A DNA stretch of 64,000 nucleotides from a phage, in the sequence record PX441839.1. One strand, written 5' to 3'. The translations under genes and the position numbers were made by a program. Below the pieces are notes generated by a model, which worked only from the letters and a program-made list of their open reading frames with translations, was not told the origin of the DNA and made no database searches. Below, in pieces: positions 44,229-54,071 of this stretch (positions are counted from its first letter, which is position 1; every line of letters starts with the position of its first letter).

Positions 44229-44998
44229 CAAAGTTTAGCAGGTTCGTTAATCCTGCCCACACCATTACGTGTTGCCATACGGTTTCCCGTAGGATCGGAC
44301 TATATCACCACCCTTTTCAGGGTGCTCCCCATTTCGACGCCACTTGGTCGCCTACGCCTCTCGGCTAGTCTCTGAACGTTAAGACCACGTATACTTCTCG
44401 GAAATATGCTTCCACTGCCGACGCTGCTTAATGGCTCGTACTGTTGCATAGGGGAATCCCATGTCGCGTACCTCTGCCTGGCTCATTCCGCTTTCAAGAA
44501 GCTGGCAAATGGTCATCACTTCGTCTTCTGTGAGGGCACTATTAGCATTGTTGATACCTTCCGCGCTGCGACAGTTGTGGCGATAGGCGTTCTCTATGTT
44601 TTTGCCTCTCGTAACCCACTGTAGGTTGTCTTTGTGGTTATTCCTTTTATCGGGCCACTTGTGATCAACCTCTGGAAGATTGTTCGGATTGGGAACAAAA
44701 CATTCTGCCACCAAAACATGGACCGCCTTTGTCGTCGCCTTTTTGTTAAGGTAAAGACTGACAATTGCATACCCTCTTCCATTATCAACATGCTTCATAG
44801 GTTTACCTCGACGACCTATAATGGTCCCGTCCTCGTAAACTTTATATCCGAAATAGTCTTTGTACTCCACGTAGTCCTCTTCGCTGCTGATTAACATAGC
44901 TGCACTTTAGTTTATTATTAACCCAGTGTCAACCTTAGCCTTCCAGCAATTAAAGGAGTTTTCGATGTAGGTTGCCCTACAAAGCCACAATGTTACTT
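44229..44998 (-). mobile_element. group I-like intron in the DNA polymerase gene, carrying an HNH homing endonuclease ORF
   Basis: About 770 nt separate the exon 1 end (...VRRIIYYH) from exon 2 (DEYQLEVP), splitting motif C. It contains an HNH ORF and an 80-nt core conserved with the second intron. Boundaries approximate. Confidence 0.55.
44379..44897 (-). CDS. HNH homing endonuclease
   Basis: 172 aa; HVLVAECFVPNPNNLPEVDHKWPDKRNNHKDNLQWVTRGKN is an HNH-type motif; lies between the polymerase fragments. Confidence 0.75.
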   Translation of the reverse strand: MLISSEEDYVEYKDYFGYKVYEDGTIIGRRGKPMKHVDNGRGYAIVSLYLNKKATTKAVHVLVAECFVPNPNNLPEVDHKWPDKRNNHKDNLQWVTRGKNIENAYRHNCRSAEGINNANSALTEDEVMTICQLLESGMSQAEVRDMGFPYATVRAIKQRRQWKHISEKYTWS

Positions 44999-51187: not shown

Positions 51188-51214
51188 AAAAAGGCCCCCG
51201 AAGGGACCTTTTAT
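51188..51214 (-). terminator. putative terminator after helicase exon 2
   Basis: AAAAAAGGCCCC-cgaa-GGGACCTTTT, imperfect stem with flanking A and T runs. Confidence 0.4.
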
Positions 51215-51700
51215 TTAGAAAGGTGGTTGGTCATCCCAATCACTGTCGTCTTCCACAACCTCAGGTGTGACTTTAGATTCTTCCGGTTTGGAATCCTCTT
51301 TAATCTCCATCTGCTGTGGTTCAATGTCATCTTCATCATCAGGGATATCGTCTTCCTTGAGATCAGATAGACCTTTCTCCGAGTTCTCTTGTGATAATGG
51401 CTGCATTTTACCAACAGCCTTCTCAACATAATGTTCAGAACTTGGATCATCTTCTGGATGAATCGCATACCACTCTCGAAGAGTTTCATATGGACTGTCC
51501 AAGAAGCCTTCTGGCGGTTCTAAGTAATCACCTGTGTCAATATCATAGAACACAGGGAACTTCCCGCTACGCCCGTGCTTACGGTCATCTAGAATTACAA
51601 ACCAAGAGGTATTTCGCTCTTTCATTGGCAACTCTGGATCTTTGTTACGCTCAATACCCACCATAAAATAAGTGTTCTTTTTGTCCAGTGGGTTCGCTAC
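51215..51700 (-). CDS. primase-helicase, exon 2 (helicase C-terminus with acidic tail)
   Basis: FMVGIERN ... GRSGKFPVFYDIDTGDYLE and acidic C-terminus ending DWDDQPPF resemble the T7 gp4 C-terminal region (from memory); exon start approximate. Confidence 0.55.
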   Translation of the reverse strand, partial: VANPLDKKNTYFMVGIERNKDPELPMKERNTSWFVILDDRKHGRSGKFPVFYDIDTGDYLEPPEGFLDSPYETLREWYAIHPEDDPSSEHYVEKAVGKMQPLSQENSEKGLSDLKEDDIPDDEDDIEPQQMEIKEDSKPEESKVTPEVVEDDSDWDDQPPF

Positions 51701-52532
51701 TCCCACCCGGTGCGATTCCTGGCACCCGCCTACACTTTCGTGCAGGAACAGACTATATCATCACCTTTCGGTGCTCTCCGCTTCGGGACCGCTTGGCCCT
51801 AACGCCTTTCGGCTAGTCGTTGAGGTTTTTGCACGTTCTGGGTACATCTTCCAAGAATACAAGTCCCCGACCTCTTTCCAATCCCTTCGGGAGCGGATAT
51901 TGAGGACTGCTGACCTTGTTACAGGTAATCCACTATTATCGACAATCTTCTGCGCTGACCAACCCTCAGAAAGAAGCCTACAAATTTTGTGAACCTCTGC
52001 CTCTGTGACTTTGGACCTGTAATGATCCTCTCCCCTCTTTGGAAGCTTATTGGCAATAGAGTGCTCAAGATTTTGCCTACCAGTGACCCATTCCAGGTCA
52101 TCTTTGTGGTTAAATTCCTTGCCTCTTTTATGATTAACTTCGGGTAAGTTCAGCGGGTTTGGAATATAAGTCTTAGCTACCAACCTGTGAACATACTCGG
52201 GCGTTCTCTTACCTTTAAGTATCACATTGACAAAATAATACCCTGTACTCTTGTTTCGAATGTTCTTCAAAAATTTATTTGTGAACAAACTAAATACCTT
52301 GCCATCTTCTGTTACAAGATATTTACTACCCTCTTCTATTGGTATCATGTTTCCCCCTTCTTTATTCTAACAAAAGGGTATAATACACAAAAGAATTTGA
52401 ATATGCAACTTACCTGCTGATTACCCAATCCTCTGTCTTTTCAAACATTCACGCCCACCCTTACGGGTCACGTTGTAGTGCCAGAGGCTCTAAGGGCTTC
52501 CCAGCAATTCAAAGAGTTTTACATGCGCTAAA
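51701..52532 (-). mobile_element. group I-like intron in the primase-helicase gene, carrying an HNH homing endonuclease ORF
   Basis: Separates helicase motif H4 (...GSRAMMR) from its continuation; contains an HNH ORF and a core segment homologous to 44300-44380. Confidence 0.55.
51761..52348 (-). CDS. HNH homing endonuclease
   Basis: HRLVAKTYIPNPLNLPEVNHKRGKEFNHKDDLEWVTGRQN, paralogous to the 44379 HNH; the C-terminal tail of the track ORF probably reads through intron RNA core. Confidence 0.65.
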   Translation of the reverse strand: MIPIEEGSKYLVTEDGKVFSLFTNKFLKNIRNKSTGYYFVNVILKGKRTPEYVHRLVAKTYIPNPLNLPEVNHKRGKEFNHKDDLEWVTGRQNLEHSIANKLPKRGEDHYRSKVTEAEVHKICRLLSEGWSAQKIVDNSGLPVTRSAVLNIRSRRDWKEVGDLYSWKMYPERAKTSTTSRKALGPSGPEAESTER

Positions 52533-54071
52533 TCAACGCATCATCGCACGAGAACCTGCAAACTGTGCCGACTGAACCTGACCACCAAATTCATGGGGTT
52601 TTCCAGATTCCGGTTTGTTCAAGTGACAGAAACAATAATATGTGAAACCTAAGTCCTTTGCAAGGATAGAGATCTCATCTGAAAATCGTTCCAGTTCTGT
52701 GTTAGCATCACCTGGTGACATACCTTGCACAAGTCGAGTAATTGGGTCGATAATAATATCTTCACAACCCTCCACCAAGACTGCGTGGCGGATTGCACCC
52801 TTCACCTCGTCCCATACTGCACGACCATAGTTGGAATAATAAATGATCTTATCGCCAACATAATCTGTAGCTTGGATTAGTTCTTCATGCTTGAAGTATC
52901 CACGTTGTCCTTCAAAGATTTCGTTACCCCAAACATCTCGGTAAGTCCCATCTTCCTGAGGGATCATTACCTTTTCTGCGTTAATGAAGTCCTTGTGGTA
53001 AATTTTACCTGCAACCTTCTTACAAGTGATGTCGTTCTCTTCTTCAAACTTAAAGATACCGACTTTCTTCTTGTCTTTTTCAATGATGTGCTCGACAAGT
53101 TGGTTAACAAACTCGGACTTACCGATCTTAACACCTGCACCAAGGAAGTATCCCTCTCCTTTACGACGACCCAGTGTCAACTTGGTCATGGTAGGCCAAG
53201 GCCATGATTTACCAAGTTTTGGAATCTCGTGCGCTTTGTCTCGAAATTGTGCATACGTAGAGAAACCTTCTGGTACATAGTCCTTTGGCTTCATTGCTGC
53301 CCAGAATAATTGGTCAGCCATTCCCTTGATGTACATGTCGCATGGGTCCATGTCCTCTGGGATGTCAACAACCTTCATCTGAGGAATTACTGAGTAAACC
53401 GCTGCAACAGCATCCTTACCTTTCATAATCCCCTTGGCCTTTTCTGCCTCCGTTGCACGATCAGCATCAAAAGCTACAATAATCTCTTCAAACTTGTTCA
53501 GAAGCTTGTAGTTGTTCTTCTGAGCTAGGTTCTGCACGGCATTAGATGTGCCGTTGGAAATTGAGACCACCGTGAAGTTTGGTTTACGTGCATTTCCATC
53601 CTTAGATTTATACTTTTCTCGGAGAACCTGCCACAACACTGCCGCATCGTACTCGCCCTCCGTGATAAAAATCATGCGACGTGAGGATTTATTTGCACCC
53701 TCCAGACCAAACAGGTCACAAGCGACAGATTGGAAACCAATCGTACTAAAGTGGCCCTTCTGTTGCTTAGGAATGGTCAGATCTCGCTTCTTAAAGCCGA
53801 CGATCTTACCCTCCAGTGTGTAGGGAAAATAGTGCGCCTCTGGTGTCATCCCATCCTTGGCAGACAGCTTAGTCCTGATTCCAAAGCGCTCTGCCGTCTT
53901 CTGATCGATACCTCGCTCAGGGATGGCTTTAAATGGGTAAGTTTTTACATCTTCTACTGTTTCTTCAACCTTGTTCATACGACCACCCCCTACTGAACGA
54001 GATACCGATGCCTTCGGGTTCTTGTACCCCGTCTTATAACCACCAAACAGACCTTCACCTAATGTGCTCAC
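52533..54071 (-). CDS. primase-helicase (T7 gp4-like), exon 1
   Basis: GTG start with AAGGAG RBS; TOPRIM-like ITEGEYDA; helicase Walker A GAGVKIGKSEF; DIIIDPITRL; ends within the H4-like region. Confidence 0.75.
   Translation of the reverse strand: MSTLGEGLFGGYKTGYKNPKASVSRSVGGGRMNKVEETVEDVKTYPFKAIPERGIDQKTAERFGIRTKLSAKDGMTPEAHYFPYTLEGKIVGFKKRDLTIPKQQKGHFSTIGFQSVACDLFGLEGANKSSRRMIFITEGEYDAAVLWQVLREKYKSKDGNARKPNFTVVSISNGTSNAVQNLAQKNNYKLLNKFEEIIVAFDADRATEAEKAKGIMKGKDAVAAVYSVIPQMKVVDIPEDMDPCDMYIKGMADQLFWAAMKPKDYVPEGFSTYAQFRDKAHEIPKLGKSWPWPTMTKLTLGRRKGEGYFLGAGVKIGKSEFVNQLVEHIIEKDKKKVGIFKFEEENDITCKKVAGKIYHKDFINAEKVMIPQEDGTYRDVWGNEIFEGQRGYFKHEELIQATDYVGDKIIYYSNYGRAVWDEVKGAIRHAVLVEGCEDIIIDPITRLVQGMSPGDANTELERFSDEISILAKDLGFTYYCFCHLNKPESGKPHEFGGQVQSAQFAGSRAMMR

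Follow-up and report, generated by a model that had tools for sequence, protein, structure and literature searches.

The primase-helicase gene of a Vequintavirinae phage is very probably interrupted by a group I intron that carries a gene for an HNH homing endonuclease, and its message would be spliced to encode one primase-helicase of 665 amino acids (aa). The gene is on the minus strand of sequence record PX441839.1, of which 64,000 nt of phage DNA were analyzed (hereafter the window; all coordinates are those of this whole stretch). Three minus-strand open reading frames (ORFs) are listed between 54071 and 51215, as an earlier note on this DNA had described, and the neighbouring genes are all on the same strand. 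The first ORF (54071..52533, 512 aa) ends in …FAGSRAMMR, the second (52348..51761, 195 aa) contains an HNH-like motif (NPLNLPEVNHKRGKEFNHKDDLEWVT), and the third (51706..51215, 163 aa) includes …NTYFMVGIERN… and ends in …DWDDQPPF. The earlier note had taken the first and third ORFs for the exons of a T7 gp4-like primase-helicase gene, split by a second intron in addition to one in the DNA polymerase gene, and had named alignment to an intact homolog and an intron covariance model as checks.

The closest relative of the window in the phage collection is Salmonella phage SSBI34 (ca. 90% DNA identity), in which the primase-helicase is encoded by a single uninterrupted gene of 665 codons. Alignment to SSBI34 resolves the window gene into two colinear blocks that abut in SSBI34 and are 859 nt apart in the window. 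At the level of single bases, the window reads …GCG AUG AUG CGU, then the insert (UGAUUUAGCGCAU … GGACAAAAAG), then AAC ACU UAU UUU…, while SSBI34 reads …GCA AUG AUG CGA AAU ACU UAU UUU… (in the intron-less allele, …GCAATGATGCGAAATACTTAT…). Joining the window exons restores a continuous 665-aa frame, equal in length to that of SSBI34, with …GSRAMMR meeting NTYFMVGIERN… at the junction; SSBI34 and Pectobacterium phage phiTE both read …SRAMMRNTYFMVGIERN… without interruption. Exon 1 ends in …AUGAUGCGU and exon 2 begins with AACACUUAU (NTY…). The insert opens with the stop codon of the 512-aa ORF, an in-frame UGA at 52535..52533, and it also includes the first ten codons of the 163-aa ORF. The boundaries given in the earlier note were therefore slightly off – the last base of exon 1 is 52536 rather than 52533, and exon 2 starts at 51676 rather than near 51700 – though the motifs it read in exon 1, the stop within motif H4, and the …FMVGIERN and acidic tail ending in F in exon 2 all stand.

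The large majority of codon differences between the window exons and SSBI34 were synonymous: 180 of the 188 differing codons in exon 1 and all five in exon 2, where there was no non-synonymous difference, or 185 synonymous and 8 non-synonymous over both exons. This pattern points to strong purifying selection on both exons, which implies that the gene is in use. The codon before the insertion site is CGT in the intron-bearing alleles (the window and Escherichia phage W70) and CGA or AGA in intron-less alleles, base −1 being T in the former and A in the latter.

Both ends of the insert and its predicted fold are those of a group I intron. The 5' splice site follows a U that is paired as U·G in a 6-bp P1, and the final base is a G at 51677 (…ACAAAAAG before AAC); the insert of W70 likewise ends in …CAUAAAG before AAU. 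In the polymerase intron of Klebsiella phage KP2025, the exon sequence is AUUCGU and the guide is GCGAAU instead of the GCGCAU of the window, so that P1 is kept by a compensatory change (column pair 7/27). P3 and P7 form a pseudoknot, and there is no P2 helix in the structure of this intron. A scan of 1.2 kb around the insert matched Rfam family RF00028 with 23.8 bits (E=0.0013), and this covariance-model alignment placed P3, P4, J6/7-P7 (CAACGACUA), P3', P8, J8/7 (GAUGAUAUAGUC) and P9 convincingly. When the P6 loop was replaced by GAAA, the minimum-energy fold (z=−2.9) reproduced P1, P3, P4, P5, P5a, P5b and P6 on the 5' side and P7.1, P7.2, P8, P9, P9.1 and P9.2 on the 3' side. P7 was missing from this fold because it is pseudoknotted with P3.

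Covariation was assessed in a MAFFT alignment of the introns of the window, W70 and KP2025, with slid and shuffled controls. Standard pairs were found in 98.3% of 231 pair cells, compared to 31–42% when the partners were slid by 1–3 columns, and 23 of the 78 pairs had changes on both sides, compared to 0–5 with slid partners. None of 500 shuffles reached the observed values. Compensatory changes were present in P1, P3, P5a, P5b, P6, P7.1, P7.2, P9, P9.1 and P9.2. The four unpaired cells are three in P5a and one A·C mismatch of the window in P6 (column pair 154/169); they arise mostly because MAFFT put part of the KP2025 P5a out of register. The criterion for subgroup IA2 is a pair of helices, P7.1 and P7.2, that lie between P7 and P3' and are linked by G-U-A (PMC3428280). 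The window has GCCGAAAGGC-GUUA-GGGCCAAGCGGUCC, with a linker one U longer; W70 and the polymerase intron of the window both have a linker of exactly GUA. The exact 859-nt addition relative to SSBI34, the group I splice-site rules, the core and the covariation support an assignment of the insert as an IA2-like group I intron, and with it the second intron that the earlier note had proposed. Coordinates are collected in the table.

Table. Features of the interrupted primase-helicase gene and of its putative intron
Feature	Coordinates	Strand	Description
Exon 1	52536..54071	-	512 codons; ORF list and colinearity with SSBI34 residues 1–512
Insert (group I intron, IA2-like, as supported here)	51677..52535	-	859 nt; SSBI34 is without the insert at exactly the same point
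P1	52523..52541	-	Exon AUGCGU (52541..52536) with guide GCGCAU (52528..52523); U·G wobble at splice site
5' core	52399..52516	-	P3 5' strand 52516..52510; P4 52506..52501 with 52420..52415; P5, P5a, P5b
P6 5' strand	52408..52399	-	Part of the 5' core
HNH ORF	51761..52348	-	195 aa; I-HmuI-type HNH homing endonuclease by homology
3' core	51688..51838	-	P6' 51838..51829; P7 51818..51814 with 51755..51751; P3' 51780..51774
Further 3' core helices	within 51688..51838	-	P7.1, P7.2, P8, P9, P9.1; P9.2 51706..51702 with 51692..51688
Exon 2	51215..51676	-	153 codons and stop; colinear with SSBI34 residues 513–665
Terminator-like hairpin and T run	51189..51212	-	Directly 3' of the stop codon of the gene; consensus scan only

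It is extremely improbable that the insert is some other intervening element, such as an intein, a group II intron or a translational bypass, for which nothing speaks beyond the interruption of the gene itself. An intein was rejected because the insert opens with a stop codon and neither exon is fused in frame to the HNH ORF. A group II intron was rejected because there is no reverse transcriptase and group I is the only RNA family matched. Translational bypass was rejected on length, as 859 nt far exceeds any bypass known to us.

The protein encoded by the joined exons matched structures of T7 gp4 (5IKN, 6N7I and 1Q57) with E=1e-21 over residues 46–529 (phmmer, PDB). The PHROGs family phrog_239 (DNA primase/helicase) matched both exons at consecutive profile positions, 96–545 and 548–653, with E=2e-136 for exon 1, and the Pfam matches to DnaB_C and Toprim_2 fell just short of the cut-offs. 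Exon 1 encodes the TOPRIM primase domain (ITEGEYD and FDADRA; VTEGEID and FDMDEA in T7 gp4), Walker A (GVKIGKSEF; GSGMGKSTF), Walker B (IIIDPI; IILDHI), H3 (CHLNKPE; CHLKNPD) and the first half of H4. Exon 2 encodes the remainder of H4, which in full reads GSRAMMRNTYFMVGIERN in the window and GSGALRQLSDTIIALERN in T7 gp4, and an acidic tail, …EVVEDDSDWDDQPPF, whose final residue is aromatic (F). In T7 gp4 the acidic tail has a role in polymerase binding. The break between the exons is thus inside motif H4, within the RecA-like core. By T7 numbering, the residues that we take to be the equivalents of Arg504 and of the Arg522 finger are in exon 2, so that exon 1 alone would be an incomplete ATPase. 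The likeness to gp4 noted earlier applies to the core only: the window protein has no N-terminal Cys4 zinc ribbon, its first 60 residues are without Cys, and the alignment to gp4 begins at gp4 residue 77, so the protein is not a full architectural equivalent. The GTG start codon of the gene overlaps the stop codon of an upstream 55-aa ORF (GTGA, 54068–54071), which suggests translational coupling. The GTG is a candidate start, and a shorter form of the protein could be made from an internal Met at residue 32.

The HNH ORF matched phrog_59 (HNH endonuclease; E=3e-27, PHROGs) and the structure of I-HmuI, 1U3E (E=3e-6, PDB), over residues 9–99, which bears out the HNH assignment in the earlier note; a Pfam search with this ORF gave no match at E<=0.01. 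Its catalytic His (H73) and metal-binding Asn (N93) are invariant in the four sequences compared. The ORF begins inside the P6 loop and is preceded by a purine-rich sequence resembling a Shine-Dalgarno sequence (GAAGGGGGAAACAUG) that is conserved in W70. At its other end it runs into the ribozyme – the last ca. 26 codons (from 51838) overlap P6', P7, P7.1, P7.2, P3' and P8, its stop codon being part of the P8 3' strand – and its C-terminal tail is 13 aa longer than that of the W70 ORF. Neither the three ORFs, nor the likeness to gp4, nor that between the HNH ORFs of this intron and the polymerase intron is attributable to chance.

Several points weigh against a spliced intron with an active endonuclease. 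The RF00028 score of 23.8 bits is below the gathering threshold of 50 bits, an operational cut-off of the curators and not a biological property. At that threshold, an Rfam scan of the whole window found the polymerase intron only, with no match to the primase-helicase intron, and the latter also dropped out of a sensitive scan of the whole window, because the E-value scales with the search space. The low score is probably due to the P6 loop, whose 560 nt hold the ORF and misplace the alignment of P5 and P6. ORF-less relatives pass the threshold (the KP2025 polymerase intron with 61.6 bits, and an intron at another site of the W70 gene with 70.4 bits), and the ORF-bearing inserts at that other site in Escherichia phages A5-4, A7_1 and UPEC06 are below it as well. 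The covariation comes from three sequences only, one of which also served to draw the structure. Pairing of P10 with exon 2 amounts, by eye, to at most 2–3 bp. In the HNH ORF, the position equivalent to Asp74 of I-HmuI, which we take to be a metal ligand (positions counted from the 1U3E alignment), carries Asn in the window and in W70 alike, and the window alone has Asp at the equivalent of Asn87. An Asn at the former position could still bind metal; given the two substitutions, the predicted endonuclease activity is uncertain. Reverse transcription PCR in the related phage CB7 showed splicing of the HNH introns of terL, pol, nrdA and nrdB, and no splicing of one HNH-associated interruption (PMC7344957). 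The CB7 primase gene is uninterrupted.

An alternative of very low probability is that the gene is split and unspliced, with two separately translated polypeptides that reassemble into an active primase-helicase. Such an arrangement reportedly exists in nrdA/mobE of Aeromonas phage Aeh1. CB7 has its one unspliced HNH-associated interruption, exon 1 does terminate in a stop codon, and there is an in-frame GUG (51706) ten codons upstream of exon 2 with AGGAA ca. 10 nt before it. However, this GUG is part of helix P9.2 and lacks a conserved counterpart in W70; there, the only in-frame AUG upstream of exon 2 is inside P9. Exon 2 has no start codon conserved between the window and W70, while the Shine-Dalgarno-like sequence of the HNH ORF is conserved. 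The split would also fall in the middle of motif H4 in the RecA-like core, at boundaries that are base-exact relative to the intron-less allele, and the group I core of the insert is complete and covaries, with the canonical U at −1 and a terminal G.

It is also unlikely, if less so, that the intron is decaying – a fixed relic rather than a mobile element, with inefficient splicing or an inactive endonuclease. The substitutions at the Asp74 and Asn87 equivalents, the A·C mismatch in P6 and the extension of the ORF into the ribozyme core, with its longer tail, could all be signs of decay. Against this, purifying selection acts on both exons of a gene that is presumably essential, so splicing must work if that presumption holds. 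The ORF is intact and 67% identical to that of W70, and it retains the invariant catalytic His and metal-binding Asn and the conserved Shine-Dalgarno-like sequence. Loss of endonuclease activity alone is possible.

From these sequences, we infer splicing of the intron, endonuclease activity of its product and homing. The primase-helicase gene would be transcribed as a single pre-mRNA containing the 859-nt IA2-type intron. In the folded intron, an external guanosine would attack the bond that follows the last U of exon 1, held in P1 by the guide GCGCAU, and exon 1 would then be joined to exon 2 after the terminal G of the intron, giving the junction …GCGAUGAUGCGU-AACACUUAUUUU…. The spliced mRNA would encode the single 665-aa gp4-like protein, with H4 completed across the junction, and the UGA at the first bases of the intron would halt ribosomes on unspliced RNA. 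The HNH endonuclease would be translated separately from the P6 loop. By analogy with I-HmuI, I-BasI, I-TwoI and I-PfoP3I, it may nick intron-less alleles near the insertion site in a mixed infection, and recombinational repair after the nick may then copy the intron in.

The distribution of the intron is sporadic. Homologs of the primase-helicase are encoded in 366 phage records, and among the best 60 of these the insert between R512 and N513 was found in W70 only, which is also the only phage record to match most of the intron. The W70 record annotates the pieces of the gene as separate genes, and the W70 paper describes them as extra helicases and leaves introns unmentioned (PMC11370258). 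For site-specific nicking and homing, this distribution is the sole indirect support. A second insertion site, between G313 and V314, is inside the Walker A loop (after GAG and before VKIGKS) and is occupied in four Escherichia phages. In W70 it holds an ORF-less group I intron of 283 nt (L002 4226–4491, minus strand), the one that scores 70.4 bits. In A5-4, A7_1 and UPEC06 it holds inserts of ca. 740 nt (L015, L016 and L017, ca. 1237–1990). The A5-4 and UPEC06 inserts contain a same-strand ORF of 498 nt, annotated as an HNH endonuclease in A5-4 only, and in the A7_1 insert the opposite strand carries the sole annotated ORF. This second site is unoccupied in the window phage.

The 5' core of the window intron is ca. 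75–80% identical to those of many phage introns. IMG/VR yielded no relatives, whether scanned with the HNH protein or with a DNA pattern specific to the intron. In Salmonella phage Kenya-K44, a Tequintavirus, an unannotated gap of ca. 250 nt (L006, ca. 686–935) follows a short coding sequence labelled 'DNA helicase'. The gap matches the 5' core of the intron family (74% over 131 nt). It did not reach the Rfam gathering score, and a further ORF-less, so far unannotated intron in a helicase gene is the probable explanation. Full-text searches of the literature found no description of an intron in the primase-helicase gene of these phages, and the insertion site in this gene seems to be new to the literature.

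The flanks of the insertion site were searched for a co-conversion tract, meaning donor-like exon sequence resembling W70 beside the intron, and none was seen; from −130 to +460 the flanks are 97–100% SSBI34-like. Divergence from SSBI34 is ca. 12–15% across 52666–54071 and ca. 1–3% in the exon parts of 51215–52665, from ca. 130 nt upstream of the intron site through exon 2. This step is a sign of recombination with a breakpoint close to the intron but not at it, and the pattern looks like ordinary mosaicism. Of the few remaining differences from SSBI34, three are clustered around the insertion site, at positions −10, −1 and +3.

A single metagenome scan yielded one contig with a related but non-orthologous intron (L013; ERZ772772 NODE-12005, minus strand). 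This group I intron starts at ca. 727, has the guide GCGCAU and the exon hexamer AUGCGU at its 5' splice site, is identical to W70 over 32 nt of the 5' core, and contains an I-HmuI-like ORF; the contig ends inside the intron. The host gene encodes a divergent DnaB-like ATPase (Pfam divDNAB, E=8e-14), and the insertion is at the matching DnaB_C profile position, about 206–209 (motif H4), in a different codon phase. It is conceivable, though rather improbable, that the lineage of introns with this guide moved between distant genes of the DnaB helicase family and kept motif H4 as its target. This would amount to ectopic transposition of an intron between non-orthologous genes, directed either by the RNA guide sequence, through reverse splicing, or by an endonuclease recognising the DNA of a conserved motif.

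The DNA polymerase gene of the window contains the other intron (44998..44229, minus strand; 770 nt), which passes the Rfam threshold with 54 bits. Its boundaries, set by comparison with the intron-less SSBI34 polymerase, are …UACCAU before the intron and …AAACUUUG at its end, followed by GAUGAA. The HNH ORFs of the two introns are 40% identical over 159 residues (E=2e-31), as expected from the paralogy that the earlier note had claimed. The 3' halves of the introns, from P7 to P9.2, are 67% identical, with P9.2 loops of UAGCGAA and UAACGAA. Both introns have their ORF in the P6 region and both are absent from SSBI34. They differ in the P2 hairpin, present in the polymerase intron only, in the P5 region, which is shorter there, and in the ORF, which in the polymerase intron overlaps the core at the 5' end rather than the 3' end, with the AUG in the P5'/P4' strands. 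The Rfam alignment of the polymerase intron takes CAAAGACUA, inside the 5' part of its ORF, as J6/7-P7. A better J6/7-P7-P7.1-P7.2-P3'-P8 block lies just past the ORF stop (ca. 44375–44290), where the sequence is homologous to the primase-helicase intron.

On this reading, the annotation of the 512-, 195- and 163-aa ORFs should be corrected to one spliced 665-aa replication protein and one intron-encoded endonuclease. The primase-helicase gene would join the Vequintavirinae replication genes known to carry mobile introns, with one insertion site in the P-loop and another, separate one in motif H4. This phage and SSBI34 are a natural, nearly identical pair with and without the intron, of use for work on homing or marker exclusion. 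The intron itself would be an ordinary selfish element of a well-known phage type, and leaves the understanding of introns and of helicases unchanged.

Among the closest known systems is the intron of W70 (OP778610), which shares the insertion site between R512 and N513, the guide GCGCAU, 72% identity over 94% of the intron, and the HNH ORF; W70 differs in its second, ORF-less intron between G313 and V314. Like T7 gp4, the window protein combines in one chain a TOPRIM primase domain and an SF4 (DnaB-like) helicase that has Walker A and B, H3 and H4, and it ends in an acidic tail with a final Phe. The tail is much longer in the window protein, which is without the N-terminal Cys4 zinc ribbon, and T7 gene 4 is intron-less. 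The HNH ORF shares sequence homology with I-HmuI, from the DNA polymerase intron of phage SPO1, with the equivalents of His75 and Asn96 conserved, and both are intron-encoded in a phage replication gene. The target genes differ; I-HmuI is a nicking endonuclease, an activity that the window ORF may share.

Intron 2 of the nrdE gene of Staphylococcus phage Twort, which encodes I-TwoI and is grouped here with the Twort-type IA2 ribozymes, is 77% identical over ca. 110 nt of the 5' core (P3–P6), and its HNH endonuclease ORF also begins ca. 150 nt from the intron start. It resides in another host gene (ribonucleotide reductase) and in a phage of another host phylum, and the comparison is one of the 5' core. 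Statements on self-splicing in Twort are based on the title and annotation of the GenBank record and on citations in PMC3428280 and PMC7344957. The intron carried by the DNA polymerase gene of cyanophage Pf-WMP3, which encodes I-PfoP3I, is a group IA2 intron that self-splices experimentally (PMC3428280). It shares with the window intron the lack of P2, the P7.1 and P7.2 helices with a GUA-type linker, a phage replication gene as host, and an HNH ORF that runs from the P6 region through P7, P7.1 and P7.2. The two differ in the host gene, which is a DNA polymerase in Pf-WMP3 and a primase-helicase in the window, and in the extent of the ORF, which in the window continues further, through P3' into P8.

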